In this document: positions 20,552 through 49,662 of the stretch, one piece after another
Numbering within the stretch: the first letter of the stretch is position 1
Layout of the letters: the number at the start of each line of letters is the position of its first letter
Assembly (NCBI GenBank): GCA_964638715.1
Contig: CAZWZF010000005.1
Location: forward strand, 37,824-101,823
Direction of reading: 5' to 3'
DNA: 64,000 nucleotides
Source: an uncultured bacterium
GTDB taxonomy: Bacteria; Armatimonadota; Hebobacteria; CAIYQO01
Program-made: the position numbers and the translations under genes
Notes under the pieces: generated by a model
Told to the model about the DNA's origin: nothing
Database searches by the model: none
What the model saw: the letters and a program-made list of their open reading frames with translations, nothing else

Positions 20552-20852
20552 AGTTAATGTAATCACCAATCATTTGGGTTACCGTAATGGCCATGGTAAA
20601 AAACATGTTTTAGTCACAGATGTACCTGATGCGCGGAGTATATTTGGTGATTCTATATTCACTGTTTTTGAACAGAACAATTTTTCAAAATATGGACTAA
20701 ATGACCCTCGGCAGATTCCGCATATCCATCGCGCATCACTGAATCGCATTCACACTGATTTCCAGACAAGTCTAATTTTCATTATTAAAGTTTTTTGCGT
20801 ATTCTTGTCCTCAAATTATAGAGGTGAACAATCTTATGACACAGCTCTATGA
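20541..20852 (+). pseudogene. 5' stub of an operon gene (Ig-like N-terminus of a glycoside hydrolase?) cut off at the GC-rich block
   Basis: The start overlaps the upstream stop (ATGGAAGATAA). VITNHLGYRNGHGKKHVLV resembles the N-terminal Ig-like domain of GH9-type enzymes. Only about 60 plausible codons precede degeneration. Confidence 0.4.
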
Positions 20853-23954: not shown

Positions 23955-24285
23955 CAACTTCCAACGCCTACGATGTGATTGTGCTTGGCGGCGGCACGGC
24001 CGGGGTGGTGGCCGCCATCCAGGCCGGGCGGGCCGGCGCGAAGTCACTGCTCGTCGAGAAGACCGGCATGCTCGGTGGCACCATGACCGTCGGCAGGGTC
24101 AACAACCCCGGCTTGTTCTTTGCCAGCACACGTCAGGTGATCGCCGGCATCGGCTGGGAAATGGTGATGCGCTGTCTCGCCGAGGCCGGGCAAGAACTGC
24201 CGGACGCGGCCAGAGACCCAGGCAAGCCCTTCTGGCAGCGCCACGTGCCGGTGGATCGTTTTCTTCTGCCGATGCTGCTTGTCGA
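23951..24285 (+). pseudogene. 5' fragment of a GC-rich FAD-dependent oxidoreductase, truncated at the composition break
   Basis: MTTSNAYDVIVLGGGTAGVVAAIQAGRAG dinucleotide-binding motif. ATGA overlap with the GH32 stop. Similarity and GC-richness end near 24285, and the ORF then runs into AT-rich DNA. Confidence 0.65.
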
Positions 24286-24373
24286 AGTGACTTTAAGCAA
24301 AAGTCCTGTATTAATTAATTTCTTTGATTTTCTTCCTGCTGGCTGGCGGGTTAAGCATCGTCCGATTTGTTGT

Positions 24374-24607
24374 TTAAGGGTTGTAACAATATCTGGTGTA
24401 CCAGTGGTAATCCCAAACTGAAACTGTTATACCAGTGCGCACCGGATTTCGTTCAATGTCTTTCAGCGCAATCCATGCGTGCTCTTCATCCATTGGCATC
24501 GAATAATACCGATTTTCCCACAAATGCCCCTACTATTTCTGACGGCGATTAGCATGGCGCGAATATTTCATGTGTGCATGACTTATAGCCTGTATTTTGT
24601 CCCTGTA
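24374..24607 (-). mobile_element. decayed remnant of an IS200/RAYT-type (Y1/HUH) transposase: C-terminal half only, with two in-frame stops
   Basis: The minus-strand frame reads IQAISHAHMKYSRHANRRQK**GHLWENRYYSMPMDEEHAWIALKDIERNPVRTGITVSVWDYHWYT. This matches the GxLWxxRfxS...YIexNPVRaGl...dYxWss pattern. TAG TAG sits at 24530-24535. Confidence 0.65.
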
Positions 24608-24734: not shown

Positions 24735-27146
24735 ATGAAACAGCGGAAAATCGATTCAATGATAGTTACCCGTGTGGAACAGACCGATAAATATTATGAT
24801 CTGGTGGTTTGTGGTGGCGGTATAGGCGGCGTTGTGACAGCGGTTATGGCTGCCCGTAAAGGATTGTCTGTCGCATTGGTTGATAATAAGGCGGGTTTGG
24901 GCGGCAACGCGTGCGCGGAGATAGGCGTCAATATAGATGGCGCCCATTGTTTTGGTTTTTTTGTTAACAAACGTGAGGGCGGACCGGTAGAGGAATTAAA
25001 GGAAAGGCTTGCTGCCATGGATCCCTATGGCGATCAGGGGATGAACAGTACAGTTATGCTTTTCTGGTGTATGGAATCAGGGGTGCATGTGTTCAGCGAA
25101 TTGCTGATAGATGAGGTTGCCGCCGAATCAAACCGTGTGATAATGGTAGCCGGTTCACAGGGGGGCACTGAAAGACGACTGGCATTCCATGCGGGGCAGT
25201 TTGTAGACGCCACCGGAGATGGTACTATTGCTGCTATGGCGAATGCGGAATATATGACAGGCCGTGAAAGCCGCGGAACGTTTGATGAAATACTTGCCCC
25301 GGAAAATGCTGATACCGGCATTATGGGGGCATCGTTATTGTACCGTGCCAGTGAAAAAAAGGAAGCCATTCCATTTGTCCGTCCGGAATGGGCATATGAA
25401 TATCGTACAGAAGATGATTTACCTTATCGTTTATCCATGCAGAAAGGTCCTGCTATATGTGGTTTCTGGTGGATAGAATACGCCGGCGACCATGATGACC
25501 CTATCGGTGAATATGAGCAGGTGCGGGTAGAATTATCGAAATGTTTATATGGTGCCTGGGCTTTTTTGAAAAATGACCCTTCAAGAGGAATGGAAAATTG
25601 GTCTCTTGACCGTGTTTCAATATCGCCTGCTAAAAGAGAAAGCCGTCGTGTTATTGGCGATATAGTGGTAAACGAGAAAGATATTGTGGGACGAACTGAG
25701 TTTAATGATGCTGTCGCTTATGTCGGATGGAATATTGATATTCATGTCCCCGGCGGTTTTAAATCGCGGTATAAGCCAAATATCCATGCCTTATTTCCAT
25801 GGGTTTCACCGTTGCCATTACGGGCATTGTATAGCCGTGATATTGAAAACCTGTGGCTTGTCGGTCGTGATATCAGTGTGTCGCATGTCGCGTTGGGTGC
25901 CACGCGTTTGCAGGCTACCATTGGCACCATGGGCCACGCCGTTGCCTGTGCGGCGGCAATCGCCCATCGCGGCGGTTTGACAAACCGTGAAACCGCGCGG
26001 CAGCAGATAAAGGCTATTCAGCAGGATATCCTGCGTGATGGTTCGCATATACCGGGAATCAGTAACCAGGATGACCGGGATTACGCGCGTCTGGCACAGT
26101 GTGTCGCTACCAGCGACCAGCCTTTACGTGTTACCGCTGGTGATTTCTTTATTCCGGTTGGCAATGGGCGGGCAGTATCATTCCCGGTGACGGGCGGAAC
26201 TGTTGATTCGATAACTATTAATCTCCGAAATCCCGGTACTATTCCAGTAGACGCGCGGTTATTCTTTTCCCCATGTATGCACCCCAACCACGCGTCTGAC
26301 CGGAACGTTCTGGCGGAAATGTCTTTACGTATAGAACCGGGGGAGCATAATATAAACTGGAAATTGAATCTGAATGATGTCGCCGTTGGGCTTTACGCGG
26401 TGGGAATCACCACTGATACATCGGTAAAGGTAAACTGGCAATGGCCGGGGCGTTCAGTTGTTCACGCCGATGATAATGGTTTCGCGGGTTTGGAATGGCG
26501 GGCCTGCAGTGATGTTCCGTATGGCTGCCATACCCTTGTTTTTGACCCGGATTATTATTATTTGCCAAAGGCGGATGTCAATGATAATCTGTATTTGGTG
26601 ACAAAACCAATTATGCTGGCGCCAATGGGGGAGGATACCAGTTGGATACGCGAGAAAAATCATCGTATGTGGCGTCCGCGTCAAATGAACAGGACAAAGA
26701 TTCCTGTCCCGGCTATTACCATAATTCCTGAACAACACCCATATACCGCGTCACAGGTAATAAGCGGTGTGTCGCATACTGATAATTTGCCGGGGTTATG
26801 GATTTCTGACCCGGATCAACCATTGCCGCAGAAAATAGAGTTAAATTGGGAACATGTGCATACTATTTCGGAAATCCGCATAGTGTTTGATACCGACACG
26901 GACATGTCGCACCCGGCGTACGAACCAATTGACACACTGGTGAAATCATACAGGGTGGATGCAAGTGTTGACGGCCGTTGGGTTGAGATTGTCCGTGAAG
27001 ATGATAATCGCGGACGCTTCCGGATTCATAAGTTTAATGCGGTTCAGGCCGACGCGTTGCGCCTGACAATCGAGAAAGTGCATGCCGGCGGCAAAAGCGC
27101 GCGGATTTTTGAGATTCGCGCGTATGGCATTGAAAATGCTGAATAA
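24735..27146 (+). CDS. FAD-dependent oxidoreductase (PF12831-like) with C-terminal discoidin (F5/8 type C) domain
   Basis: DLVVCGGGIGGVVTAVMAARKG motif. The C-terminal YRVDASVDGRWVEIV...ALRLTIEKVH...IFEIRAYG is discoidin-like. Confidence 0.7.
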   Translation: MKQRKIDSMIVTRVEQTDKYYDLVVCGGGIGGVVTAVMAARKGLSVALVDNKAGLGGNACAEIGVNIDGAHCFGFFVNKREGGPVEELKERLAAMDPYGDQGMNSTVMLFWCMESGVHVFSELLIDEVAAESNRVIMVAGSQGGTERRLAFHAGQFVDATGDGTIAAMANAEYMTGRESRGTFDEILAPENADTGIMGASLLYRASEKKEAIPFVRPEWAYEYRTEDDLPYRLSMQKGPAICGFWWIEYAGDHDDPIGEYEQVRVELSKCLYGAWAFLKNDPSRGMENWSLDRVSISPAKRESRRVIGDIVVNEKDIVGRTEFNDAVAYVGWNIDIHVPGGFKSRYKPNIHALFPWVSPLPLRALYSRDIENLWLVGRDISVSHVALGATRLQATIGTMGHAVACAAAIAHRGGLTNRETARQQIKAIQQDILRDGSHIPGISNQDDRDYARLAQCVATSDQPLRVTAGDFFIPVGNGRAVSFPVTGGTVDSITINLRNPGTIPVDARLFFSPCMHPNHASDRNVLAEMSLRIEPGEHNINWKLNLNDVAVGLYAVGITTDTSVKVNWQWPGRSVVHADDNGFAGLEWRACSDVPYGCHTLVFDPDYYYLPKADVNDNLYLVTKPIMLAPMGEDTSWIREKNHRMWRPRQMNRTKIPVPAITIIPEQHPYTASQVISGVSHTDNLPGLWISDPDQPLPQKIELNWEHVHTISEIRIVFDTDTDMSHPAYEPIDTLVKSYRVDASVDGRWVEIVREDDNRGRFRIHKFNAVQADALRLTIEKVHAGGKSARIFEIRAYGIENAE

Positions 27147-27182
27147 ACTAAATTAATACAACCTGTCCCTGTAATTCTAATT
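26968..27182 (+). repeat. copy 1 (in situ) of the oxidoreductase 3'-end repeat
   Basis: It covers the last ~180 nt of the CDS plus ~35 nt downstream, and recurs at 36170-36408 and 39455-39552. Confidence 0.9.
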
Positions 27183-27311
27183 TCTCAATCAAATTAGGCT
27201 GTTTTGAACATTTTCAATGGAGAAACAAATATGCGGCAGGGGAGACACAAAACGGTTGACACGCGGGTCAGGAGGAGTCTATTCTTATTGTTGTAATTTT
27301 ATGGTAAATAT

Positions 27312-27494
27312 ATGGGGTTTACCGAATACTTACCATTTTTAAAGGAGGTGTATCATCCAATCCGTCGTTCCGGTTTTACTCTCATCGAGTTGTTGGTCGT
27401 CATAGCTATGTTAGTTCTCTATCTTTCCTGTCAACAACGGCGGTGCCATAACCTTGAACGCGGCGGGTGTATATACCAGCAATTTCCGGGGTGA
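27312..27494 (+). pseudogene. leader-only stub of a prepilin-type gene
   Basis: [16 protein letters not shown] (about 27363-27410) after AAAGGAGG, then unrelated sequence and a stop. There is no H-X9-DG part. Confidence 0.55.
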
Positions 27495-27552
27495 TATCTC
27501 CTAATTGACAGTTTTGAATGTCACACCGCAGCAAAGAAAGGACCATCAAACT

Positions 27553-28449
27553 ATGAATATTTTAAACCATGCCCAATGGCTCCCGTTTTCACCCGGTAAT
27601 GATGATCACTTTTTCGTTGACACCTTCCCCAGTAACTACCCGTCACTGCCAGAATCTCTCTGTGCCGGGTGGGAAATTCGGACATCACCCAACTATCGTT
27701 ACTCAGGCCAAACCCGGGTGGGGCCAGTGGGAACAATCCAGTATACAGTGCGCGGAGAAGGTTGCCTCAGGTACAATAACAGAACTTATAAAGTATTGCC
27801 CGGACAGGCGTTTCTACTGGAATCCCCCGGTGATTATTTATACAACTTGCCGGATGAAGCACCTCTTTGGGAATTTATATTCCTGACATTTAATGGGGAG
27901 GACCTGCTCCAGCATTTTCGTCAGTTCATAACGACTCACGGACCAGTCATAACTCTTGACCCGGAGCATCCAATAGTTACACTGCTGCTGCAAATCGGTC
28001 AACGCATCGCAACCAAACAATTCAAAACAGCTGAAGACAGTGCGATATGGCTTTACCAAATGATGATGGAGTTACTGAAAGTAGCAAGTGCAGAAGCGTC
28101 ATATCCAACCTTAATACAATGCGTATTGCAACATCTGGCGCAACACTTCACCCGGGATATCAACGGCGAGGAACTCGCGGATATCGCCGGCATATCTTTG
28201 GCGCAGTTCTACCGTGTCTTCAAAACACATACCGGATATACACCCGGGCAGTATATCACTATGCAGCGTATGCGCCAGGCTTTGTATTATTTGCGCTATA
28301 CTCACCTGTCAATAGAGGAGATCGGCCGCCGGTGCGGTTTCAGCAGCGGGTGGCATCTGGGGAAAATCTGTCGAAAAGTGCTGGGACATTCCCCCAGTCA
28401 TTTTCGCCAAGCAGCAACTCTCCCCCCTGAATCCTGCTGGCGCATTTGA
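27553..28449 (+). CDS. AraC family transcriptional regulator
   Basis: C-terminal LAQFYRVFKTHTGYTPGQYITMQRMRQALYYL...IGRRCGFSSGWHLGKICRKVLGHSPSHFR double HTH. Start chosen at MNILNHAQ. Confidence 0.8.
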   Translation: MNILNHAQWLPFSPGNDDHFFVDTFPSNYPSLPESLCAGWEIRTSPNYRYSGQTRVGPVGTIQYTVRGEGCLRYNNRTYKVLPGQAFLLESPGDYLYNLPDEAPLWEFIFLTFNGEDLLQHFRQFITTHGPVITLDPEHPIVTLLLQIGQRIATKQFKTAEDSAIWLYQMMMELLKVASAEASYPTLIQCVLQHLAQHFTRDINGEELADIAGISLAQFYRVFKTHTGYTPGQYITMQRMRQALYYLRYTHLSIEEIGRRCGFSSGWHLGKICRKVLGHSPSHFRQAATLPPESCWRI

Positions 28450-28625
28450 AAAACTGACAATCTATAAAAAATGATACTGGCAGCAATGTGATTCCCATGA
28501 GAAAATTAGACCAGTAAAAAGCTATTATTAGCACTGTTAAAATCATCACAGTGGTGATATTATAATTTAACGGTGTCAACCATATCACAATATGACACCG
28601 TCAATACACCTTGAAGGAGGTTTTT

Positions 28626-29768
28626 ATGTGTAAACTTAAACGAGGGTTCACCCTCATCGAATTACTGGTCGTGATAGCCATAATTGCTATCCTCGCCGCG
28701 ATTCTGTTCCCCGTCTTCGCCCGTGCTCGAGAAAAGGCGCGGCAAACTACCTGCACGAACAACCAGCGACAATTAGCTGCATCTATGCAAATGTATGCTC
28801 AGGATCATGAAGAATTACTTCCATCATCCGCAACAATATGGCAGGATCTAAAAATAGAACCTCAGGTATTACAATGTCCTACAGCTGGAAAAAACTTAAC
28901 GGTGGCTTATGCTTATAACAACATCCTTTCCGGGATGTCACTCGGTAATGCGACTGATCCTACCTCGGTATGGCTTACTGTAGATGCTGATGACAGCAAA
29001 GCACCATCGTACCGCCATTCAGCAAAAACTTTATTAAGTTATCTTGACGGACATGTCGGGCAAAGAGATCCCGGGATAGTGGCGAAATACGTCGGCGCTG
29101 AACTTAACATGGTTGCATTCCGATCTACGGACATCGGGACGAAGTCATATACACTCCCGAATCATCCCAATGCATATGGGAGGGAAGGCTATATCATGTT
29201 CGGCACTGCCGGTGCGTCGGTGACACAGGAAGCCAGCGGCGATTTTACCGGAACAATCTATACCGGCACCCGGTCGGGCACAAATTTCAACAATCCAGCC
29301 ATCGGCATCGCTTCTATCGCTATCCTCGGGACCGGGCAAGGAGGCAGTGGAGGACCCAGCGTCAATGGCCGTTGGCGCAGTGATAACGGAAGCGCCGGCG
29401 GGAATCTGGACGATGCGTCGCGGGGTATCGGCCCATCGGTCCCTGACGTCGTGAACGGCACTTTCTGGTACCGATGGAATGGCGAAACTTCCCTTGATTT
29501 GCTGAAAATCACGCTTTCCGCCGATATGGTGCCCACCACACTTCGTATCGGTATCATCACCGACCGCGGAGACAGCCAGAAACCGGGAGCGATCGGTGTG
29601 GGCAATAACAGGAAGAATAGGTTAGGCGCGAACAGCTACGGCTCCCCGGATCTGTACTTCTTCGATTTGACAGGGTTGCCGGGAGACACAGCCCCGATTT
29701 CGATGACACCCTATGCTGCCGGGCAGTGGGGCACGGCTATTCGCGGGCTGGTCTTTGATACCCAATAG
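28626..29768 (+). CDS. prepilin-type H-X9-DG protein with a distinct, GC-richer C-terminal module
   Basis: AAGGAGG then the ATG at 28626. [47 protein letters not shown]9-DG motif [12 protein letters not shown]. Confidence 0.85.
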
Positions 29769-29800
29769 CCCGTGTCCTTCGTGAAGCAAATAAAGTTGTG

Positions 29801-29844
29801 GCTATCTCTCATAATTCATGTTTTCATGAATTATGAGAGATAGC
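29801..29844 (+). terminator. 20-bp perfect hairpin (GCTATCTCTCATAATTCATG/CATGAATTATGAGAGATAGC, loop TTTT)
   Basis: Read directly, 33 nt after the stop. No T-tract follows, so it may be a terminator or a palindromic element. Confidence 0.45.
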
Positions 29845-30026
29845 TGTTGCTCAAAGCTCGTTCTGGTTCCGATAAATCAGCCGAGAATACCTTGCCATTA
29901 TTGCCTTGTGGAAACTTTTCTATAAAGTAGTTATCTGACACAACTGTGCTATAGCATCATCGCTCTGCCGAGGATGTCAACTGCAGATTAACCAGGTGGC
30001 CAATCTTAAAATAACAGGAGAAAATT

Positions 30027-33000
30027 ATGCGTAATTTCATTGTGGTGCTGCTATCGCTGGTCTTCACAGTGGCAATGGCGACGGAGACCGAAAATCTTGG
30101 TATCCGCATCCTGCCAGTTCCGGGTAAGGTCGCCATCGACGGCAAGGTCGACGACTGGGACCTCTCCGGCGGAGTCCTTGTCTGCGGCGATGTCGAAAAC
30201 ATGCGCGACAAGATGGCGGTGTGGATCCACACCATGTACGACGCCGACAATCTCTACGTGCTGGCGCGCTTCCTCGACGAGACGCCGATGAGCCACCCCG
30301 GCTCGATCGCCGGTGACTACGGCTTCATGGGCGACAGCCTGCAGTTGCGCCTCATCGCCAAGCCCGAAGAAAATGATCCGCGCAGCAGCATGGGCGGCAA
30401 GGAGGTTTGCTGGGTGACCGCCTGGCGCGACCGCGACGCCAAGGACGTGGTCAACCTGCATTTCCCGCGCAAGCAGGAGGCCGGCGGCGACAAGCAGATC
30501 GCCGACGCGAAGAAGGTCGGGGCGCAGCAGGCGTTTCTGGCAACCGCTGATGGAAAGGGCTATGTGCAGGAGATGGCCATCCCCTGGAAGCTGCTGGCCG
30601 ACGGCGGCCTCACGCCCAAGCCCGGCGAGCGCATCGTCTTCAGTGTCGAGCCGAACTTCAACACCAGCGCCAAGTTCCGCATCACGCTCAAGGACCTCTT
30701 CCGCCCGGGCATCTTGCCCGACCGCATGTTCACCTTCAGTGCCTGGAACTGCTGGGGCTACGGCGTCTTCGCGCCGGCCGGCAAGGTCGAGCCGCAAATG
30801 GTGCGGCTGGCCGACAACCGCGAGTTGAAAGTCAGCATGCAGAAGGGCGTGCCGGTGGTGGACTGGACCGAGCTATTCGAAGTGAAGAAGACTGAAGGTT
30901 TCGCCAAAATAAACCTTGACCTGCCGGAAGACGGCTATGTATCCTTAAACATCAAGAACGCCGATGGACAGGTTGTGCGGCATTTGCTCACTGCTAATTT
31001 CTTATCCAAGGGCAAGCACGAACTGCTCTGGGACGGCTTGACCACCATGAGCCACATGAAGCCGGGCGAAGTGGTGCCGGCGGGTGACTACTCCTGGGAG
31101 GCGATCTACCACACCGGCATCGGCCTGCGCCTGGTCGGATGGGCGCACAACGCCGGCCGGGCGCCCTTCGACTCACCCGGCGGCAACTGGGGCGGCGACA
31201 TGGCCCCCCCGATCTCGGTGGCGGCCGACAACACGAGCATGTACTTGGGTTGGGCGTTTGCCGAGGCGGGCCAGGCCGTGGTCTGCACTGATTTCGACGG
31301 CAACGTCAAATGGCGCCACAAACGCGGCGGCTTCGGCGGCGCCTCGCTTCTGGCGGTCAGCGACGGCATCGTATACGTCTACGACCTGGGCCAAGGGAAC
31401 GCGATCTATCGCCTCGACGCCACCAAGGGCGACTACTCGAACTGGCAGGGCAGCGAGGACGCGGCGCTGGCGCTGACCCCCATTCTCGGCGAGGCGAAGA
31501 AAGCCGAGAGCACCCTCCAACCAACCGCCACCGGCATGGTCGCTACCGGCGGTAAACTGTTCATCAGTTTTGGCAGCAAACCGAAGGACTGGGAGAACAA
31601 ATTCCAACTATCCGGCGATGCACTGTTCGTACTCGACGCCAAGACTGGCAAACTCCTCCAGCGCATCAATACCGCGGATCCTCAGGACCTTAAACTCGGT
31701 GCCGACGGCAAGCTCTACCTGCTATCCGGCAATGGCAACGTGAGCACGGTCGATCCCGTGAACGTGGCGCTGACCGAGGTGGTGAAGGGCGTGCCGAACG
31801 CTCGCAGCGTCACTGCCGACAAAGAGGGCAACATCTATATCGGCGTCGGCGACCCGGACAACCAGGTCAAGGTTTTTGACAAGATCGGCAAGCCCCTTCG
31901 CGCCATCGGCAAGGCCGGCGGCCGCCCGCTCCTCGGGTTGTGGGATGCCGCAGGCATGCGCTTCATCGCCGGCATTCAAGTTGATGCCAAAGGCCAGCTA
32001 TGGGTCATGGAATACGACGGGATGCCACGCAGGATTTCCCGTTGGGACGCCACTACCGGCGCGTTCACCAGGGAGTTCTTCGGCCCTACCACCTACGGCG
32101 CCAGTGGCGGTGCCATCTCCCCGGACGATCCACTGGTCATGGTTGGTGCCGGCTGCGAATGGCGGTTGGATGAGAAGACCGGCAAGGCCGCCTGCGTCGG
32201 CGTGTTCGACCGCGGCGAGACGCATGGTGCTCGCTTCGGCAAGGGTCCCAACGGCCGCCTCTACGTGGCGGTCGGCGGCGCCTGGCACGCAGCCACTCCT
32301 GTGTCCATCTACGAGCGCCTGGGCGCGGGCCAGTACAAACTACGCGCCAAACTCAGCGCGCTCGTCGAGAAGATGGACAACGGCCGCGGTGGGACAAGCG
32401 AAGTGCGGACCGGGTATGTCGTCTGGTCCGACGCCAACGACGACCAGCAGGAGCAGCCCGACGAAGTGCGCCCCTACAAGGCCGATCTCGGCGGCTGGGT
32501 CAACGGCTGGTACCTGCCGATGGCGCCCAGCATGATCTTCTATGGCACCAATTACCGCCTCGCCCCTACAAGCTGGACCGCCTGCGGCGCGCCGCTCTAC
32601 GACTTCGCCCAGGCTAAGCGCATGCCGACCCCAGACGACAGCAAGGGTATGCACGGCATCGGCATGGGCGCAACCCGCGGGCTTGGTTCCACCGACGGCC
32701 GCCTCATGGTCTATAACGGCCTCTACGGCGAATCGCACTCAGAGTTCCCCTGTTATGACATCGAAACCGGCAAGCTCCGGTGGAGCTACCCGAACAACTA
32801 CGTCGGTGTCCACGGCGGACACAATGCGCCACCGCCGCAAGTCGGCATGATCCGCGGCGCCTACGACATCCTCGGCACCGGCCGCCTGCCCGACCCGATC
32901 GGCGACATCTTCGTCATCGCCACCGACAAGGGCGAGTGGCATATCCTCACTGGCGAGGGCTACTACCTGACCCGGCTCTTCGAGGCGGATGTGCTTAAGA

Positions 33001-33959
33001 TCCGCTGGCCCGACCCGGCCGTGCCCGGTGCGATCATGGACACCGTGCCGCCCGGCATGGGCGCCGAAGATTTCGGCGGCTCGATGACGGTCACTAAGGA
33101 CGGTCAACTCTATATCCAACACGGCAAGACCGCCTTCATCAACTCCCGCGTCGTCGGACTCGACAGCGTCCGCAAACTGCCGGGCGGCAAATTGACGGTG
33201 GCCCCGGACGATCTGGCCAAGGCCAATGCGATCCGCGACAAGCTCTTACAGGCCAGCGTCGGCGCGAAGATGACCACGGCGAAGAAGAGCACAGTGGCCT
33301 TCACGGGCGACCTGCGCAAGGACTTCAACACCAAGGAACCGCTGACGTTTCAGAAGACCAACGCGGACCGCGTTGAAGCGGGGATTGCCTGGGACGATAC
33401 GAACCTCTACCTCGGCTGGCAGCTGAACGACGCCACGCCGTGGGTCAACGGCGCCGGCGACGCCGCCCAGATGTACGCCATGGGCGACACGGTGGACTTC
33501 CAACTCGGTACCGACCCGAAGGCCAACGCCAAGCGCGACAAGCCCGCACTCGGCGACCTGCGCCTGTCCATCGGGAACCTCAACGGCAAACCGACCGCTG
33601 TGATATTCCGCCCGGTGGCGAAGGAAAAGGCGCCGAAGAAGTTCTTCTCCGGTGTCTGGCGCGACGGCGTCGAGTACGACAGCGTCCTGACGCTGACCGA
33701 CGCGAAGATCGAGGTCAAGGTGGACGCGGCAGGGAAACGCTACGTCGTTGAAGCCGCCATCCCGTTGGCGACGCTCGGGCTGAAACCCGCGGCCGGCCTG
33801 ACCCTGAGCGGCGACTTCGGCGCCACCTTCGGCGACGCCGCCGGCAAGGACACGGTGCTGCGGAGTTACTGGAACAACCAGGCTACCGGCATCGTGGCCG
33901 ACGAGGTGGCGGAGTTGCAGCTCGAGCCCAAGAACTGGGGCCGCCTGATCTTCGAGTAA
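30027..33959 (+). CDS. giant secreted protein: CBM9/DOMON-like ends, FlgD-Ig-like domain, NHL-type beta-propeller repeats; GC-rich
   Basis: Signal peptide. VAIDGKVDDWDL...YDADNLYVLARF. KGKHELLWDGLT...VPAGDYSW. NHL-like GNIYIGVGDPDNQVKVFDKIGKPLRAIG. The ORF encodes 1310 aa. Confidence 0.7.
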   Translation: MRNFIVVLLSLVFTVAMATETENLGIRILPVPGKVAIDGKVDDWDLSGGVLVCGDVENMRDKMAVWIHTMYDADNLYVLARFLDETPMSHPGSIAGDYGFMGDSLQLRLIAKPEENDPRSSMGGKEVCWVTAWRDRDAKDVVNLHFPRKQEAGGDKQIADAKKVGAQQAFLATADGKGYVQEMAIPWKLLADGGLTPKPGERIVFSVEPNFNTSAKFRITLKDLFRPGILPDRMFTFSAWNCWGYGVFAPAGKVEPQMVRLADNRELKVSMQKGVPVVDWTELFEVKKTEGFAKINLDLPEDGYVSLNIKNADGQVVRHLLTANFLSKGKHELLWDGLTTMSHMKPGEVVPAGDYSWEAIYHTGIGLRLVGWAHNAGRAPFDSPGGNWGGDMAPPISVAADNTSMYLGWAFAEAGQAVVCTDFDGNVKWRHKRGGFGGASLLAVSDGIVYVYDLGQGNAIYRLDATKGDYSNWQGSEDAALALTPILGEAKKAESTLQPTATGMVATGGKLFISFGSKPKDWENKFQLSGDALFVLDAKTGKLLQRINTADPQDLKLGADGKLYLLSGNGNVSTVDPVNVALTEVVKGVPNARSVTADKEGNIYIGVGDPDNQVKVFDKIGKPLRAIGKAGGRPLLGLWDAAGMRFIAGIQVDAKGQLWVMEYDGMPRRISRWDATTGAFTREFFGPTTYGASGGAISPDDPLVMVGAGCEWRLDEKTGKAACVGVFDRGETHGARFGKGPNGRLYVAVGGAWHAATPVSIYERLGAGQYKLRAKLSALVEKMDNGRGGTSEVRTGYVVWSDANDDQQEQPDEVRPYKADLGGWVNGWYLPMAPSMIFYGTNYRLAPTSWTACGAPLYDFAQAKRMPTPDDSKGMHGIGMGATRGLGSTDGRLMVYNGLYGESHSEFPCYDIETGKLRWSYPNNYVGVHGGHNAPPPQVGMIRGAYDILGTGRLPDPIGDIFVIATDKGEWHILTGEGYYLTRLFEADVLKIRWPDPAVPGAIMDTVPPGMGAEDFGGSMTVTKDGQLYIQHGKTAFINSRVVGLDSVRKLPGGKLTVAPDDLAKANAIRDKLLQASVGAKMTTAKKSTVAFTGDLRKDFNTKEPLTFQKTNADRVEAGIAWDDTNLYLGWQLNDATPWVNGAGDAAQMYAMGDTVDFQLGTDPKANAKRDKPALGDLRLSIGNLNGKPTAVIFRPVAKEKAPKKFFSGVWRDGVEYDSVLTLTDAKIEVKVDAAGKRYVVEAAIPLATLGLKPAAGLTLSGDFGATFGDAAGKDTVLRSYWNNQATGIVADEVAELQLEPKNWGRLIFE

Positions 33960-34099
33960 GCCAACAGGAACTCCACGATGCAGCGACTGGCCTGTCGCTC
34001 GGGTAGTTGCCCGAGTGACAGGTCTGAACGGCACAAGGAAGACCTGCTCCTTCGCCAGAAAAACGAACGCTGATGCGTATACCACACTGGAGCAAACCG

Positions 34100-36151
34100 A
34101 TGATGAACAAACTGATTCGCGCCGGCCTCGCCGCCGGTATCGTGGCACTGACTGCCGGTAGCGCCGTGCTCGCCGCTGAGCCGCCGGCCGGCCCCGCGCA
34201 GGCGCGGCCGCCGGCCTGGGCGGCAAAGGGCGCGTATGTCTTCCGCGTCTCGACGCCCGACGAAGCCGATGTGTTGCCGCAGCTCGAAGAAGGGCACGCG
34301 ATCGTCGCCAACCTGCTCGACGGAACCGTCCCGCAGATCACGATCGTGAACGGGTTGATCGGCCACGATCATCCCGGGCCGTGGAACTGGGACGGGCTCT
34401 GGCCGTACTGGAACCGGGCGACGTTCCGCGCGGGCAACTTCGAGAAGCTCGCTGCCTTCATGGCCCGGGCGAAGAAGAACTCGAACGTCTACACCGGATT
34501 CCACCTCAACCTGACCGATGTGAACATCGGCCTGCGCGATTACCCCGAGTCGCGGGCGTTCTTCCAGAAACTCGTCGAAACCAAATCGATCTACCGCCGG
34601 GATTGGAGCAAGGAGACGAACAAACGCGATGGCGAACCGTTCGTCCCGCTCGAGATCGACCAATACTCGGGCGCCAAGCCTGGCCAGCCGCATAATCCCG
34701 TGGGGATCTTCGCGCTCGTGAACTACAAGAACTTATGGGACAGCGGGCTGGCGAAGGAGATGATCGACGGCTTCTATGCGAAACTGCCGTTTGCGCCGCC
34801 CATGCTGTATCTCGACGTGCTCAACGCCGGCGGGGGCAATTTTTCTACCGGGTTTCCCGACGGACCGCTGGGTGGCAGTGAGAAGACGCAGATCGAAGGC
34901 ATGCGGGCCATCGCCGATTATCTGCACAGCAAAGGCACCGATCTGGGCACCGAGGGTAATCGCCGCTTTCTCGGCACCAACGCGCAAGGTTTGCCGCGTG
35001 CCGGTTACGTCTGGCTGCACGGCAGCGGCATCTCCGCCGACGACTACAGCGTGATCTCCGGCGGCTCTGGCTCGCCTCTGGTCGAGCAGATCCTTGGCTC
35101 GGCCGGCGCCTTCAACGTCTCGCCGATCGCCAGTACGACGAGCCACCTGGCGCGCGTGCGCGAGCACTACGCCGCCTTGCTGGCGGGCAAGACGAGCAGC
35201 AAGAAGATGCCGGGCCTCGAAACGGCGCACGTCTGCATCCGGACCGGCAAGGACGAGTTCGACATCCCAGGCACGGGCGACCCGTTTCGGGGAGACTGGG
35301 CCGACCTCGTCAACAACTTCTACCTGATGAGCATCCAGGAACTCTACCACGTGGGCAAACGCAATGTGCGCCTCAGTCGATCGCCAGACCTCAGCTGGCA
35401 CTTCGACAAAGCCATCCTCACCAGTCCCGAGGGCAAGGAGTCCATCCTCGAAGCCGAGAACTTCGTCATCATCGATTGGGCACGGGATGCGGCGATCAAA
35501 TCGGGCTCGGTGTGCATGCAGGATGCGTCGACCCTGAACCTCACCGTCGAGATCACCGAGCCGGGGGATTACGCCCTGAAACTGCGCCTGCTCACGCAGG
35601 ACCACGATGGCGAACTGAACGTGTGCTTGAACGGGGAGTTCCACCGCAACACCTACATCAAACGCGTGGGGTGGCGTCCGATCACCGGCGACTGGCCGAT
35701 CGTGGATTTCGGCACGGTCAAGCTCCGCGCGGGCACCAACACCATCACCGTCGATACCGGCCAGGTCCGGGCCGCGTGGAGCGACGGCACAAAGGCAGAG
35801 TGGAGTACACCGGCATTGTGCAAAGGCTTCAAAGTCTGGCGTGACGACGTGGTCTTCGCCGTGGACTACGACCGGATGTGGCCCGACACGTGGAGCGGCC
35901 AGCAGAAGATCTACTTCTTCAGTTGGGACGGCACGCACCGCGCCTGGAAGCTGCCGGCCGACTGGGGCGCTGTGTCGCGCGCGACATTGTACCCGTTGAC
36001 GCCGGATGGCCGCGGCAAAGGCGTGCCGCTCGCCATCCAGGATCGCACCATCATCCCCGCGCTCCTGCCCCAGGTGCCCTATATCCTCGTACCCGAAAAC
36101 GCCGACAAAGAGAAACACACTATGATGAACACAACACAAAGAGACCAATAA
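34100..36151 (+). CDS. secreted hypothetical protein, possible glycoside hydrolase barrel plus C-terminal CBM-like beta-sandwich; GC-rich
   Basis: Signal peptide MMNKLIRAGLAAGIVALTAGSAVLAAEP. No family recognised with confidence. The last ~15 codons fall in lower-GC DNA. Confidence 0.55.
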   Translation: MMNKLIRAGLAAGIVALTAGSAVLAAEPPAGPAQARPPAWAAKGAYVFRVSTPDEADVLPQLEEGHAIVANLLDGTVPQITIVNGLIGHDHPGPWNWDGLWPYWNRATFRAGNFEKLAAFMARAKKNSNVYTGFHLNLTDVNIGLRDYPESRAFFQKLVETKSIYRRDWSKETNKRDGEPFVPLEIDQYSGAKPGQPHNPVGIFALVNYKNLWDSGLAKEMIDGFYAKLPFAPPMLYLDVLNAGGGNFSTGFPDGPLGGSEKTQIEGMRAIADYLHSKGTDLGTEGNRRFLGTNAQGLPRAGYVWLHGSGISADDYSVISGGSGSPLVEQILGSAGAFNVSPIASTTSHLARVREHYAALLAGKTSSKKMPGLETAHVCIRTGKDEFDIPGTGDPFRGDWADLVNNFYLMSIQELYHVGKRNVRLSRSPDLSWHFDKAILTSPEGKESILEAENFVIIDWARDAAIKSGSVCMQDASTLNLTVEITEPGDYALKLRLLTQDHDGELNVCLNGEFHRNTYIKRVGWRPITGDWPIVDFGTVKLRAGTNTITVDTGQVRAAWSDGTKAEWSTPALCKGFKVWRDDVVFAVDYDRMWPDTWSGQQKIYFFSWDGTHRAWKLPADWGAVSRATLYPLTPDGRGKGVPLAIQDRTIIPALLPQVPYILVPENADKEKHTMMNTTQRDQ

Positions 36152-36169
36152 CTGTGAAAGCAATACGGG

Positions 36170-36408
36170 GATAGGTTATGCATTAACCAGCGTTGACGGC
36201 CGTTGGGTTGAGATTGTCCGTGCAGATGATAATCGCGGACGGTTTCGTATTCATAAGTTTAATGTGGTTCATGCCGACGCGTTGCGCCTGACAGTCGACA
36301 AAGTGCATGCCGGCGGCAAAAGCGCGCGGATTTTTGAGATTCGCGCGTATGGCATTGAAAATGTTGAATAAAATAGATTAATACAGGACTATGCCAAGTA
36401 ATTCTAAT
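36170..36408 (+). repeat. copy 2 of the oxidoreductase 3'-end repeat (orphan fragment with stop codon and downstream spacer)
   Basis: Hand alignment to 26968-27182 gives about nine mismatches in ~180 coding nt. It encodes ...VDGRWVEIVRADDNRGRFRIHKFNVVHADALRLTVDKVHAGGKSARIFEIRAYGIENVE*. Confidence 0.9.
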
Positions 36409-36413
36409 GTTGA

Positions 36414-36442
36414 TTGATATCGCTGCAATATTTTTGTATAAT
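36414..36442 (+). promoter_or_regulatory. sigma70 promoter TTGATA-N17-TATAAT upstream of GH38
   Basis: Hexamers at 36414-36419 and 36437-36442 with a 17-nt spacer. Confidence 0.5.
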
Positions 36443-36570
36443 TATGATATTGAAAAGTTTTATAAGAAATACAGAATAAAATTATAGATAAAAATAGATA
36501 AATAGGTGACTGTCCCTATTTATTCGTACTAGTGCCTGTCTCTATTCAGTTTAGAAAGAAGGAACAACAA

Positions 36571-39435
36571 ATGGCTACTCTTGCACAAAAATACTCCGCG
36601 CTTAAAAAAGCCGTAGGTGGTAACCGTGAAATAATGGGTTACGAAGAAACCTTCGGTATGCCGCAGGAAGAACAGTCACACGTAACGATGCCGAATAAGT
36701 ATATACGCCGTATACTGGCTGAAATCGAGTTTGCGATCAGGCTTTCCGGTGTAAATGACGGCACATTCGACACCGATATCGGAACTGCTCTCGATTATCT
36801 CGAACAGGCGATGGTCGAAGAAGGTGTCTTAACAAAGACCGCATGCATCGAAGCGGAAAAAATGATTCTCAGCCTCGCGGACGCCGCAAAAGAATACAAG
36901 CTGATTCTGGCCGGCCACGCGCATATCGACATGAACTGGATGTGGAGCTGGCACGAAACCGTTGCCGCGACGCTTGCCACCTTCCGAACCATGCTCGATA
37001 TCATGGACGAATACCCCGACTTCTGCTTTTCACAGTCTCAGGCTTCGGTCTACAAGATTGTCGAGGACTTCGAACCCGAGATGATGCAGCGCATAAAGGC
37101 GCGCATAAATGAGGGACGCTGGGAAATAACCGCTTCCGCATGGGTTGAAACCGATAAGAATATGCCCAACACCGAGTCCATGATCCGGCATATCCAATAC
37201 ACTAAGAATTATCTTCGCGACAGTTGGGATATCAATCCCGATTCGCTTGAAGTAGACTTTTCACCCGATACATTCGGCCACAGCGCAAATCTGCCGGAAA
37301 TCAACAATTTCGGCGGCGTGAAATATTACTATCACTGCCGCGCTCTGGACGGCAATCAGGCGCTCTACCGCTGGAAGGGCCAGTCCGGTAAAGAAGTGCT
37401 CGTTTACCGTGAGCAGTATTGGTACAACAGCGCGATAACTCCCAAAATCGGAGCGGGTATTATCGATATCTCAAAACGCTGCGCGGGTTTCAAAACGGGA
37501 CTTGTCGTCTACGGAGTCGGCGACCATGGCGGTGGACCGACAAGGAGAGACGTTGAACGCGCGCTCGAGATGATGCAGTGGCCCATCTATCCGAGAATCA
37601 AGTTCGGCACTTTCCACGAATTTTTCCGTGAAGCTGAGTCAGTCCGCGATAAGCTGCCGCTTGTCGAAAAAGAGCTGAACTTTTCCTTCAGCGGCTGCTA
37701 TACAACGCAGAGCCGTTTAAAAATGGGCAATCGCGCCTGCGAACGCGCGCTTGTCAATGCCGAAGCGATGGGCGCTTTCGCCGCGATGAAGGCGAATGCA
37801 AGCAATAGCAATTACCCGCTTGAAAAAGCCTGGCGCGACGTGCTGTTTACGCATTTCCACGACATACTGACCGGCTCGTGCGTACAGGACAGCCGCGAGC
37901 ACGCGATGGGCCTGTTCTCAAATTCACTCGCTGTGGCACAGTCAAGGTATGCGTCGTCTATACTGAAACTTTCAGAGCAGATTAATACTTCTTCAATTGC
38001 TGCCGATCCCGATATTGCCTCTTCGCAGTCGGAAGGCGCGGGAGCGGGTTACGGCGTGGAGAATTTCGGAGGAATGCCCCGTTCCGAGAGAGGCCGCGGC
38101 AGGACACGCATATTCAATGTATTCAATCCGACAGGAGCAGAGAAGGGCGAGCCGGTTGAAATTACCGTCTGGGATTGGACGGGAGACATGCGCTTTGTCG
38201 ATGTCACCGATGTCTCCGGCGATGCGGTCGAATTCCAGATACTCGACGGCGGGCTGCAGCAGTACTGGGATCATAAATACTTCCGCATCCTGGCGTATGT
38301 GCAGGTGCCGGCATTCGGATACACAACGGTTGTTCTCTCCGAAAAACCGATGCAGGGCGACTATCCGATTTATTATCAGGCCGAAGTCCGCACGCACCAT
38401 CCGAATCAAAACTATGTGCTCGAAAACGAACACATACGCGCCGAATTCGATTACAGAACAGGTGAGATGATAGCACTGCGCGACGTTAAAACAGGTACCG
38501 AGTATCTGAAAGCCGGCGAAAGAGCCGGACTGCGACTTGTTGAAACCGAAGCGGCATCATCCAACGCCTGGAATATCGGCAATTATCTGCGCGTAAACAA
38601 TATAGATCACGCGGTACGCCTACACAGCGAATCGAACGGCGGACTGCGCTGCGGTTTTGTTGCCGAATACAAGGTACTCGGCTCAACGGTCAAACTGCAC
38701 TGCTCCCTCGAAAAAAACGCCCGCGCCATTACCTTTCTTGCCGATGTTGATTGGAATGAAGTCGGCGGAACTGTCATTCCTGTGCTGACCTATGAAGTTC
38801 CTCTTGCCGTCCCACCCGAGTATTATATGTACGACATACCGGCCGGCGTCATCGAGAGAAAACCCCTGGAACTCGATGTTCCCGCGCTGCAGTACGCGAT
38901 GGCGGTCCACCCAAACGAAACCACTTCGGTGGCCATCGTCACCGAAAGCAAGTACGGTTATCGCGGCACGGGCGATGGCAGACTGATTGCAACCTTTATC
39001 AACACGGCCACCAGCCCCGATCCGTATCCGGAACGCGGCATTCATAAAATCAACTTTGCCGTCGGCCTTTTCCCGCACTGCGCCTGGCTCATGGAACAGG
39101 CCGCGACTTCGATTAACAACCGGCTCACCTACCAGCCGACAAACTCCCATCAGGGAACGCTGCCGCCGTCAGGCGCCTTCTTTGGGTTCGAGAGCGAGGG
39201 TGTGGTGATTTCCGCCGTATCAGGCGAAGGCCGCAATGTAACGGTCCGCCTATATAACGTCACAAAGCGGGAAAGCAAATGTACCCTGACCTTTGCCGAA
39301 ACGATCGCATCCGCGTGTTTCACCGATGTCATGGGGTGCAATATCGGTGGCGAGATAATAATCAGTGACGGCAAAGCCGTGTTCGCTGCGGCTCCGTGCG
39401 CCGTAATGAATATTACACTGAGCTTCTGCTCATAA
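36571..39435 (+). CDS. alpha-mannosidase (GH38); intermediate GC
   Basis: AGHAHIDMNWMW, FSPDTFGHS and GVGDHGGGPTRRD are GH38 signatures. Start chosen at MATLAQKY. Confidence 0.85.
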   Translation: MATLAQKYSALKKAVGGNREIMGYEETFGMPQEEQSHVTMPNKYIRRILAEIEFAIRLSGVNDGTFDTDIGTALDYLEQAMVEEGVLTKTACIEAEKMILSLADAAKEYKLILAGHAHIDMNWMWSWHETVAATLATFRTMLDIMDEYPDFCFSQSQASVYKIVEDFEPEMMQRIKARINEGRWEITASAWVETDKNMPNTESMIRHIQYTKNYLRDSWDINPDSLEVDFSPDTFGHSANLPEINNFGGVKYYYHCRALDGNQALYRWKGQSGKEVLVYREQYWYNSAITPKIGAGIIDISKRCAGFKTGLVVYGVGDHGGGPTRRDVERALEMMQWPIYPRIKFGTFHEFFREAESVRDKLPLVEKELNFSFSGCYTTQSRLKMGNRACERALVNAEAMGAFAAMKANASNSNYPLEKAWRDVLFTHFHDILTGSCVQDSREHAMGLFSNSLAVAQSRYASSILKLSEQINTSSIAADPDIASSQSEGAGAGYGVENFGGMPRSERGRGRTRIFNVFNPTGAEKGEPVEITVWDWTGDMRFVDVTDVSGDAVEFQILDGGLQQYWDHKYFRILAYVQVPAFGYTTVVLSEKPMQGDYPIYYQAEVRTHHPNQNYVLENEHIRAEFDYRTGEMIALRDVKTGTEYLKAGERAGLRLVETEAASSNAWNIGNYLRVNNIDHAVRLHSESNGGLRCGFVAEYKVLGSTVKLHCSLEKNARAITFLADVDWNEVGGTVIPVLTYEVPLAVPPEYYMYDIPAGVIERKPLELDVPALQYAMAVHPNETTSVAIVTESKYGYRGTGDGRLIATFINTATSPDPYPERGIHKINFAVGLFPHCAWLMEQAATSINNRLTYQPTNSHQGTLPPSGAFFGFESEGVVISAVSGEGRNVTVRLYNVTKRESKCTLTFAETIASACFTDVMGCNIGGEIIISDGKAVFAAAPCAVMNITLSFCS

Positions 39436-39454
39436 AACGCAGTGACAATACAGA

Positions 39455-39552
39455 GACAGGTCATACATTAACCATCGTTGACGGCCATTGGATTGAGATT
39501 GTCAGTGAAGATGATAATCGCAGACGGTCTCGGATTCATAGGTTTAATGCGG
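39455..39552 (+). repeat. copy 3 (truncated, more diverged) of the oxidoreductase 3'-end repeat
   Basis: It shares the 5' boundary AGGTNATNCATTAACCANCGTTGACGGCC with copy 2. About 14 mismatches in ~98 nt. Homology ends at 39552. Confidence 0.8.
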
Positions 39553-40480
39553 GCCAATTTGCCACCGTCTCATGCCAAGCCGCAATGTTTTCTGGCGGAA
39601 TCCCGGCCGGCCAGTGACTGTAGTCGTCGGCGATCATGCCGCCGAGTCCGGCTCCGGTCGCCTCCAGCAGGTGCGCCGACTCGCAGCGAACCTTTTCAGT
39701 CGTGGCATATGGCAGGCAGGTCTGGATGTCGGGCATGATGGACAACGTCAACCGGCCGCGGCAGGCGGCCATGATCTTCTCCAGCCCCATGCAGTCGGAC
39801 TGCTGAATCTGAAGGATGTCCAGGCCTATGTCGTATAGGTCAGGCATAATCTCCAGAATGTGGCCACAGGAATGCAGGAAGGTGGCGATCCCCAGTTCGC
39901 GGCACAGCTCGAACAGGCGCGCATAGCGCGGCCGGAAGAACTCACGCCAGAGCGCGGGGGAGATCATCAAGCCGTTCTGCAACCCCCAGTCATCCTGGAA
40001 GTAAACACAGTCGACGCCGCTGCCCGCCAGCCGCCCCAGCTCCGCCAAGTGGAACTCGATGATGCGGTCGGCCACCGCCCCCATCTCGTCCGGATATTCG
40101 TAGAGCCAGACCATGGCGTCTTCCATGGGGCAGAGGAAATGGATCTGCTCCCAGATAATCGAGCCAAGGACGACCATCGTCCAGGAGTCACGCGCGGCGG
40201 CGATCCGCTCCAGCACGCCGTCCCAGCGCTCCGACCGAAGCGGATCAGGGAAGAGATGGGCGGCCAGTTCGGCGATCGTCGTCACCGGATAGGTCCGGTC
40301 GCCATGCACCATGCCGTCGCGCGGGATATTGACCACGCCCCACTCGTCGAGAAACCCACCCTTCGGGCGGTTCGTCCGCGTGTTCGGCAGACTGATCCAA
40401 CTCACGTCACCGTAGAGGGTTGGCACCCGGTCGGAGGGCTGATGTCGGACGGCGTTGCGTATACGTTCTTTTGAGTTCAT
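39536..40480 (-). CDS. URO-D/MtaA-like family protein; GC-rich; the last codons and stop lie inside repeat copy 3
   Basis: Family-typical pattern (FLHSCGHILEIMPDLYDIGLDILQ). The terminal ...ALNL* codons (39536-39550) are encoded by the antisense of the repeat fragment. Confidence 0.6.
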   Translation of the reverse strand: MNSKERIRNAVRHQPSDRVPTLYGDVSWISLPNTRTNRPKGGFLDEWGVVNIPRDGMVHGDRTYPVTTIAELAAHLFPDPLRSERWDGVLERIAAARDSWTMVVLGSIIWEQIHFLCPMEDAMVWLYEYPDEMGAVADRIIEFHLAELGRLAGSGVDCVYFQDDWGLQNGLMISPALWREFFRPRYARLFELCRELGIATFLHSCGHILEIMPDLYDIGLDILQIQQSDCMGLEKIMAACRGRLTLSIMPDIQTCLPYATTEKVRCESAHLLEATGAGLGGMIADDYSHWPAGIPPENIAAWHETVANWPALNL

Positions 40481-40580
40481 GCGGCATTGCTCCCTTTTAT
40501 GAGCGGTATAGATTTCTCGCTTAGCAATTCGCTGCCGCCGTGCCCGAGTCCCGTTTCACCAGGACCCGGGCGGGGTTGCG

Positions 40581-44783: not shown

Positions 44784-44950
44784 CGACCCCAGCGTTCACA
44801 TATTTGTAGAAAACAATTCATCATGAGATTTTCGACCCCAGAGTGGGTCGTATATAATTACCGACAATCTGCTATGTTATATGCGACCCACTCTGTGGTC
44901 GAATAACTTTTAAAGACTTTTTCTACAAATATTTGACCCCTGGGGTCACG
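44784..44950. repeat. composite nested palindrome built from REP-like hairpin units
   Basis: Inner 27-nt inverted pair at 44831-44857 / 44877-44903 (2 mismatches). Outer 14-bp perfect pair ATATTTGTAGAAAA / TTTTCTACAAATAT at 44800-44813 / 44919-44932. Flanking GACCCC...GGGGTC units. Confidence 0.8.
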
Positions 44951-47631: not shown

Positions 47632-47760
47632 ATCGAAAAAATTAACCTTACAGGAGAAATGACCATGAACCAAAATCCCACCACACCTTCACAAACCATC
47701 ACTCTCGACGGCTTGGTTGGATGGCACCGTGGACTGCTCAGGAGACACGTATCGACAGTC

Positions 47761-49585: not shown

Positions 49586-49662
49586 TGGAGCCTCCTATCA
49601 GATTCGAACTGATGACCTGCTGATTACAAGTCAGCTGCTCTGGCCAACTGAGCTAAGGAGGC
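49586..49662 (-). tRNA. tRNA-Thr (anticodon UGU), CCA encoded
   Basis: Hand-folded cloverleaf. Acceptor GCCTCCT/AGGAGGC, D stem GCTC/GAGC, anticodon stem GCTGA/TCAGC with loop CTTGTAA, T stem ATCAG/CTGAT with loop TTCGAAT. Length 77 nt. Confidence 0.9.

Follow-up and report, generated by a model that had tools for sequence, protein, structure and literature searches.

The prophage e14 of Escherichia coli K-12 is excisable and encodes its own integrase. In the passage given to this element in PMC13626634 (citing Hill et al. 1989), the 3' end of icd extends into the bounded DNA, and icdC, a C-terminal pseudogene, is found at the far end. Tandem accretion of integrative elements and of cis-mobilizable elements (CIMEs) has been described at the 3' end of a target gene (PMC5704250). 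Direct repeats of this kind are also left by partly deleted tandem duplications and Campbell-type insertions, where the edges are sharp and the second repeat starts at the end of the first unit; such repeats are functionless, decay and need no recombinase. Here, a locus with a similar layout is described in a 64,000-nt stretch of DNA from an uncultured bacterium (GenBank assembly GCA_964638715.1, contig CAZWZF010000005.1, positions 37,824 to 101,823; hereafter called the window). The 3' end of a gene for a flavin adenine dinucleotide (FAD)-dependent oxidoreductase with a discoidin-like domain recurs twice further downstream. On balance, we lean slightly towards reading the two additional copies as scars of two nested head-to-tail duplications, or of equivalent single-crossover insertions, whose second units were deleted or overwritten.

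The intact gene (24735-27146, + strand) encodes a protein of 803 aa, matched by PF12831 (E = 8.6e-68). Its discoidin-like domain is C-terminal; PF00754 falls on residues 671-794 with 24.2 bits, under the Pfam cut-off of 28.2 bits. The third-position GC of the gene (0.46) is host-like, and the best homologue of the protein anywhere is 71% identical. Copy 1 (26964-27181, +) is the end of this gene itself, made of its final 183 nt, including the stop codon (27144-27146), and 35 nt of downstream spacer. The copy 2 unit (36161-36408, +) consists of a 28-nt flank (36161-36188), a stub (36189-36371) with its stop codon at 36369-36371, and 37 nt of spacer. Copy 3 (39446-39552, +) has the same kind of flank (39446-39473) and a stub of 79 nt (39474-39552), cut off by a GC-rich block. 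All three are oriented in the same direction and form direct repeats.

The recurrence of the gene end had been proposed in an initial annotation of the window, and the repeat search and BLASTN agree with it. BLASTN aligns copy 1 (26964-27181) with copy 2 (36189-36408) at 91.4% identity over 220 nt with two gaps, while the ungapped repeat (26964-27160 and 36189-36385) reaches 94% over 197 nt. The coding parts of these two copies differ at 10 of 183 nt, and their longest exact match, at 27075/36300, measures 64 nt. For copies 2 and 3, the repeat search gives 86% between 36161-36267 and 39446-39552, and copy 3 matches the intact gene at 74% over 27 aa (tblastn). Copies 1 and 2 are therefore the closest pair (94%, against 86% for copy 3 and either of them), with informative sites divided 7/3/3.

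The flank (CAATACNGNGANAGGTNATNCATTAACCANC) is shared by copies 2 and 3 only, where 23 of the 28 nt are identical; its pattern has two matches in the window, compared with none expected from 100 shuffles. The common 5' boundary that had been reported for these copies, different from the context of copy 1, is thereby borne out. Their starts had been placed at 36170 and 39455; the copies are indeed located there, but begin at 36161 and 39446. All repeat edges are sharp. Upstream of 36160 and 39445, an anchored alignment scores 0, and no significant local alignment is obtained past 27181/36408 or past 39552. A resemblance by eye between 'TMMNTTQ' and 'AVMNITL', which would carry the similarity of copies 2 and 3 into the 3' end of the GH38 gene, gave no signal in local or anchored alignments. 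Gapped homology between the flank and the DNA upstream of copy 1 was likewise not significant (score 18, shuffles 16 ± 2). The pattern GATTGTCNGTGNAGATGATAATCGC, used for further copies, has no match in the genome_contigs or the metagenome_contigs collection.

Copies 2 and 3 are non-functional, decaying pseudogene stubs, devoid of a promoter and of a start codon. An in-frame stop codon is located upstream of copy 2, at 36126. Relative to copy 1, copy 2 has four synonymous and six non-synonymous codon differences, and at positions conserved in the family it is copy 1 that retains the family state and copy 2 that is altered (RE to RA, AVQ to VVH). In copy 3, the nearly invariant F762 is substituted. 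The orthologues all keep the motif 'TLVKSYRV' at the position of the flank. As the flank does not encode this motif, it is junction sequence and no evidence of a second intact gene. The derivation of copies 2 and 3 from a paralogous or allelic gene end, as suggested earlier, is hence not retained. Both stubs have the same flank on their left, from which it follows that the truncation happened a single time and that its product was copied afterwards.

A second gene might nevertheless have existed. According to this explanation, the gene for a 692-aa protein that ends just before copy 2 was once followed by a diverged paralogue. The 5' 90% of this paralogue would have been lost through deletion or through overwriting by the GC-rich block to which the 692-aa gene belongs (block B), gene conversion would have maintained the resemblance of its tail to copy 1, and one further copy of the truncated stub would have been made later. 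The conserved order in relatives is a DUF1559 protein, a CBM9/NHL protein of ~1200-1350 aa, an optional enzyme and the oxidoreductase, so that copy 2, behind genes for 1310-aa and 692-aa proteins, stands where a full oxidoreductase gene is expected. The flank is also open in the frame of the gene, with a Tyr one codon off the invariant Y739, and conversion would account for the similarity of copies 1 and 2, the highest of any pair. However, apart from the missing 'TLVKSYRV', the similarity falls abruptly from 94% identity to nothing detectable, and a later duplication would still be required for the edge that copy 3 shares. No full-length paralogue was found, although the one dedicated protein search, with the copy 2 peptide, was uninformative. 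We regard this explanation as rather unlikely.

Two GC-rich blocks adjoin the stubs. Third-position GC is 0.33-0.47 in host-like genes and 0.74-0.84 in these blocks. Block B (30027-36151, +) contains a CBM9-like gene of 1310 aa (30027-33959) and the gene of 692 aa (34073-36151), which has a GH101 beta-sandwich domain; their values are 0.84 and 0.83. Block C (39536-44423, -) contains a URO-D-like gene (39536-40480, 0.80) and a CBM9-like gene of 1280 aa (40581-44423, 0.74). Between copies 2 and 3 lies a GH38 alpha-mannosidase of 954 aa (36571-39435, +; identified with Pfam; longer open reading frame 36532-39435), with a value of 0.61. Copy 3 begins 10 nt past the stop codon of this gene, and the spacing from copy 2 to copy 3, 3285 nt, corresponds to flank, copy 2, promoter and GH38.

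Compared with 71% for the best match of the host oxidoreductase, the 692-aa gene reaches 84% identity at the protein level and 86% at the DNA level to a metagenome-assembled genome (MAG) of the Phycisphaerae (GCA_035529015.1) and to related ENA contigs (L008-L010). The 1310-aa gene has matches of 82-85% on a 64%-GC JGI contig that also bears a piece of the 692-aa gene. The blocks are complete, horizontally acquired genes, most likely from a Phycisphaerae-like donor in the Planctomycetota, and we infer from the composition that they moved into the host. Their foreign origin, implied by the cassette exchange of the initial annotation, is thus upheld. Its placing of the composition breaks at the copies holds for copies 2 and 3, the only ones to abut such steps, but not for copy 1, which is embedded in a gene of host-like composition, block A ending 2.7 kb upstream of it.

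Both terminal genes of blocks B and C have lost their own last codons and stop codon (36104-36151 in the 692-aa gene, 39536-39552 in the URO-D-like gene) and terminate in host-side DNA, a few codons from their natural end. Homologues of the 692-aa protein stop ~10 residues after 'VPE', and the donor-like similarity ends at ~36103-36126; the reading frame then continues for 9-11 extra codons into the low-GC flank. The URO-D-like gene is matched by its Pfam profile up to position 345 of 346, and its last five codons and stop codon lie within copy 3. The JGI contig bearing both block B genes (Ga0210003_1018499, 4331 nt, 64% GC) carries pieces of them at ~85%, in scrambled order and orientation, and is either a rearranged locus of the donor lineage or a misassembled contig.

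Such composition changes could in principle be produced by an assembler that switches strain or organism at a conserved gene end, as had also been considered. Three composition switches within 25 kb, and several short contigs that begin inside copy 2 (two from Logan at 36334, one from JGI at 36381), would be expected from such switching. However, MEGAHIT contigs of two ENA samples match the window at 100% identity. The order 692-aa gene, copy 2, GH38, copy 3, URO-D-like gene and 1280-aa gene recurs in nine contigs at 99.7-100% identity, which come from four assembly sources and different samples (ENA with MEGAHIT and SPAdes, two JGI metagenomes and three Logan assemblies). The organism is present in ERZ27300137, ERZ27299977, ERZ4201038, ERZ4223250, SRR7053532, SRR7053533 and SRR12676970 and in JGI 3300021349, 3300021605 and 3300021520, and a contig of 174 kb also bears the oxidoreductase gene. 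The longest exact repeat (64 nt) is shorter than the k of 141. Logan uses a k-mer that we take to be about 31; an assembler with such a value would break at a true repeat near 36334, so the contig starts fit a real repeat. The GC-rich genes are moreover complete, and AT-rich, host-like intergenic DNA precedes the first gene of blocks B and C. An artefact is extremely improbable: the junctions are real and misassembly is rejected. One of the SPAdes contigs (ERZ4201038 NODE_445) shows 47 differences from the window over 17.4 kb. All but three of them fall in three patches inside the imported 1280-aa gene (40965-41028, 42231-42519 and 42777-42867), a distribution that points to recombination in patches, with a diverged allele or paralogue as partner.

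Under the duplication reading, three steps would have built the present arrangement, their order and kind being inferred. First, a segment of 9.2 kb (26964-36188), starting 183 nt before the stop codon of the oxidoreductase gene and ending ~60-85 nt past the 692-aa gene, would have been duplicated head to tail; the outcome would be no different if the DNA had been inserted by a single crossover in the 220-nt gene end. Copy 2 would thereby arise, bordered on the left by the last 28 nt of the first unit, which form the flank, and the second unit would then have been lost save for its first 220 nt. Second, a unit of 3285 nt (36161-39445), comprising flank, copy 2, promoter and GH38, would have been duplicated head to tail, giving copy 3, which in the model starts with the same 28-nt flank because the whole unit was copied. 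Third, block C would have replaced the redundant second unit from 39553 onwards at no cost, its terminal gene borrowing a stop codon from copy 3. No dedicated recombinase would be needed at any step. The homology-driven insertion at the gene end that had been put forward earlier therefore survives in part: it is equivalent to the single crossover and, on the present data, indistinguishable from a tandem duplication.

Several observations support such scars. The edges are sharp and shared, the layout is direct and head to tail, and, as in a tandem duplication, the second copy starts where the first unit ends, with a period of exactly one gene unit. The stubs decay, stubs of other genes lie at junctions, and the foreign blocks are made of whole genes. 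The reality of the junctions, the absence of a recombinase in ~84 kb, a repeat free of structure and the lack of duplicated gene ends at 35 other loci fit as well.

Other points weigh against this reading. The remainder of a second unit is not recognisable past either 36408 or 39552, and four events are required. The first segment must end on its right within ~35-85 nt of the end of block B, which randomly placed breakpoints would do in only a few per cent of cases. The model makes copy 3 the daughter of copy 2, yet copies 1 and 2 are the most similar pair; it would have to be assumed that copy 3 decayed faster, that the events were nearly simultaneous or that gene conversion acted on copies 1 and 2, although the counts are small (7/3/3). 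Both the coincidence at the end of block B and the closeness of copies 1 and 2 are explained naturally by site-specific accretion, discussed below. Furthermore, the order of events cannot be fixed without a close relative free of the blocks, and the collections contain none, the best homologue of the host gene being 71% identical. Typical duplications also differ from the locus in that here both second units are nearly gone, one of them overwritten by DNA of another phylum, and in that the events are nested, the first junction being carried inside the second.

In the accretion model, the gene 3' end is an attachment site at which two modules (27182-36188 and 36409-39473) integrated in tandem. 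Each module would bring a replacement gene end and a 28-nt arm, and copies 2 and 3 would be the displaced older ends; the modules, having no integrase, would have decayed or moved in trans, like CIMEs. The layout indeed resembles that of icd and icdC flanking e14, as far as the passage on this prophage in PMC13626634 describes it: an intact target gene and a displaced C-terminal pseudogene fragment in the same orientation with few substitutions, found here as copies 1 and 2. It also resembles accretion at a target gene end and CIME arrays (PMC5704250), where at least three att-like direct repeats divide modules, integration genes may be missing and the inner repeats adjoin a conserved end; in the window, the common end is the 28-nt arm of copies 2 and 3.

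The arm itself, which is not part of the gene and lies beside the left edge of the homology, favours this model. At that edge, 10 nt (GTTGACGGCC) are identical in the three copies and 31 nt in copies 1 and 2, an identity that common descent would produce as well. Copies 2 and 3 border on foreign DNA or DNA of intermediate GC, and copy 3, the outermost, has some of the residues of the orthologues (DGHW, HRF) that are missing from copies 1 and 2.

Nevertheless, no integrase, recombinase or transposase domain was detected with Pfam in open reading frames of at least 120 aa in the window, nor in gene calls of the 10 kb beyond either end (~84 kb in all); the initial annotation had advised searching the genome for a site-specific recombinase. 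A recombinase is thus found neither inside nor next to the bounded DNA, and the intergenic gaps in 27147-39552, none longer than 380 nt, are too short to accommodate a decayed one between the copies. Six-frame translations of five intergenic gaps showed nothing recognisable by eye as an integrase remnant. The arm measures merely 28 nt, and the other module ends are unrelated. The interval between copies 1 and 2 begins with a host-like AraC regulator and an N-methyl protein whose N-terminal half is host-like, and mixes these with imports, which does not support the 'serial cassette exchange' suggested earlier. A comparison with related genomes, also proposed at that stage, detected no duplicated 3' end within 10 kb at any of 35 full-length loci of the oxidoreductase/discoidin family in GTDB genomes, and the repeat pattern is in neither DNA collection, so that use of the same target by other genomes, as in CIME arrays, was not seen. 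The expressed gene shows a single variant across samples; excision hybrids are therefore not seen either.

Unlike e14, the DNA bounded here encodes a regulator, a pilin-like protein and glycan enzymes, with no recombinase within ~84 kb. The site also departs from CIMEs: it has no known integrase or related autonomous element, its arm is short, and the pattern is absent from the 35 other genomes. The resemblance to icd/icdC and to CIME accretion is one of layout only, the defining recombinase having been looked for and not found. Positive evidence for an att-like site, as initially suggested, was not obtained. We keep site-specific accretion as the main rival reading, although we consider it unlikely. 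A bolder variant, which we hold to be improbable, is that the 248-nt unit (28-nt arm and 220-nt gene end) is a portable docking module that stacks glycan-utilisation cassettes, including genes from another phylum, behind a protein-coding gene, joining being carried out by an unlinked recombinase or by homologous recombination of circularised fragments.

A function of the repeats themselves was also considered, either as silent 3' cassettes for conversion of the discoidin-like domain or as a regulatory or RNA element upstream of GH38. Partial 3' copies without a promoter, downstream of an expressed gene, would suit the former, and a strong promoter-like site (TTGATA-17-TATAAT, 36414-36442), located 6 nt after copy 2, the latter. 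However, the expressed oxidoreductase protein has a single sequence variant in five contigs (a one-member cluster), so the mosaic variation of a pilS-like silent-cassette system is missing, and non-conservative changes accumulate in the stubs. Folded as single-stranded DNA, the repeat has no structure (z = -0.02 and +0.10), and no Rfam family matches it. With no integrase either, an integron attC site or a structured RNA was rejected. Any functional element is very improbable.

The GC-rich block A (20836-24286, +), upstream of the intact gene, contains a GH27 gene (third-position GC 0.64), a GH32 gene (0.82) and a 5' fragment of an FAD oxidoreductase. This fragment (23951-24286), which had been taken for the 5' end of a homologue in the same enzyme family, comprises the first ~112 codons and has only PF12831 in common with the intact gene (45% over 42 aa). 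Because its longest best matches measure 413-460 aa, presumably their full length, compared with 760-800 aa in the discoidin family, it belongs to a distinct, discoidin-less subfamily of ~430 aa, and block A shares no anchor with the copies. In two Lentisphaerota genomes, a GH32 gene is located upstream of the oxidoreductase/discoidin gene, adjacent to it in L014 (8601-9998) and ~2.6 kb off in L017 (5844-7379), a placement that recalls the GH32 of block A.

Other remnants lie close to the intact gene. A C-terminal piece of ~50 aa of a REP-associated tyrosine transposase of the RAYT/IS200-like kind (24374-24530, -; NCBIfam NF047646, E = 3.6e-5, profile positions 89-145 of 146) is the only transposase remnant in the window. 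It ('GHLWENRYYSMPMDEEHAWIALKDIERNPVRTG...') lies past block A and ahead of the promoter region that belongs to the oxidoreductase gene, with stop codons just upstream of the remnant. Just downstream of copy 1, a stub of 60 aa (27312-27494, +) retains only the N-methylation motif of a DUF1559-type protein (tblastn 59% over 27 aa; Pfam N_methyl, E = 8.8e-6). The presence at junctions, within the 20-45 kb region, of the short FAD oxidoreductase, RAYT and N-methyl stubs indicates repeated illegitimate breakage and not one special site.

An N-methyl/DUF1559 protein (28611-29768, +; 385 aa), between copies 1 and 2, looks chimeric. Its residues 1-150 match host paralogues, and the third-position GC there is 0.2-0.6, for the most part 0.3-0.45. 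For residues 170-383 the values rise to 0.57-0.77, and this part shares 55% identity with the C-terminal end of a beta-helix protein from the Phycisphaerae, whose gene adjoins a homologue of the 692-aa gene. Strain single-nucleotide polymorphisms at 29065, 29099 and 29117 sit at the composition switch.

The host is probably a member of the Planctomycetes-Verrucomicrobia-Chlamydiae (PVC) group with ~44% GC, similar to Lentisphaerota/Victivallales. The loci closest to that of the oxidoreductase belong to a 'Verrucomicrobia' bin and a Victivallaceae MAG. The closest homologues of the low-GC oxidoreductase gene (68-71%) lie on contigs L011, L012, L005 and L006, all with 60-65% GC, and the present genome, with its low GC, is an exception among the relatives sampled nearest to it for this gene. 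A conserved adjacency of oxidoreductase and GH38 in relatives was discarded, as GH38 is near in only 3 of 80 loci, all distant.

As in polysaccharide-utilisation clusters of the PVC group with acquired genes, whole glycoside hydrolase and carbohydrate-binding genes of donor-like composition sit here among native clusters of regulators, DUF1559 proteins and enzymes. The locus differs from those clusters in that two terminal genes among the imports no longer have their own stop codon and run on into host DNA, in one case into a stub. It represents an ordinary, though neat, remodelling of a glycan-utilisation supercluster that was reshaped repeatedly with imports from another phylum. It shows how a sugar-utilisation locus is rebuilt in an uncultured bacterium, redundant duplicated DNA serving as a landing pad and imports being patched with host stop codons. 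It also advises caution, because repeated gene ends at composition breaks need not imply an attachment site or a misassembly. If accretion were the true explanation, the significance would be greater, as this would be a stacking of catabolic cassettes without integrase at a protein-coding gene, undescribed for the PVC group; a docking module, if real, would amount to an integrase-less system of cassette accretion in a PVC bacterium.

Elsewhere in the window, a GDSL esterase (47659-48609, 0.71) and a protein of 947 aa without Pfam hit (54102-56945, 0.59) have an intermediate third-position GC similar to that of GH38 (0.61), and the three may be older or differently sourced acquisitions. Past block C, an imperfect palindrome (44799-44935) with 59-nt arms, 73% complementary, and a 19-nt loop lies in an AT-rich (21-28% GC) divergent region between the 1280-aa gene and a GntR/LacI-type regulator. 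The only tRNA gene of the window, for tRNA-Thr (anticodon TGT; 49586-49662, -), is located in a 33%-GC stretch, and the SPAdes contig ERZ4223250 NODE_137 appears to end around it.

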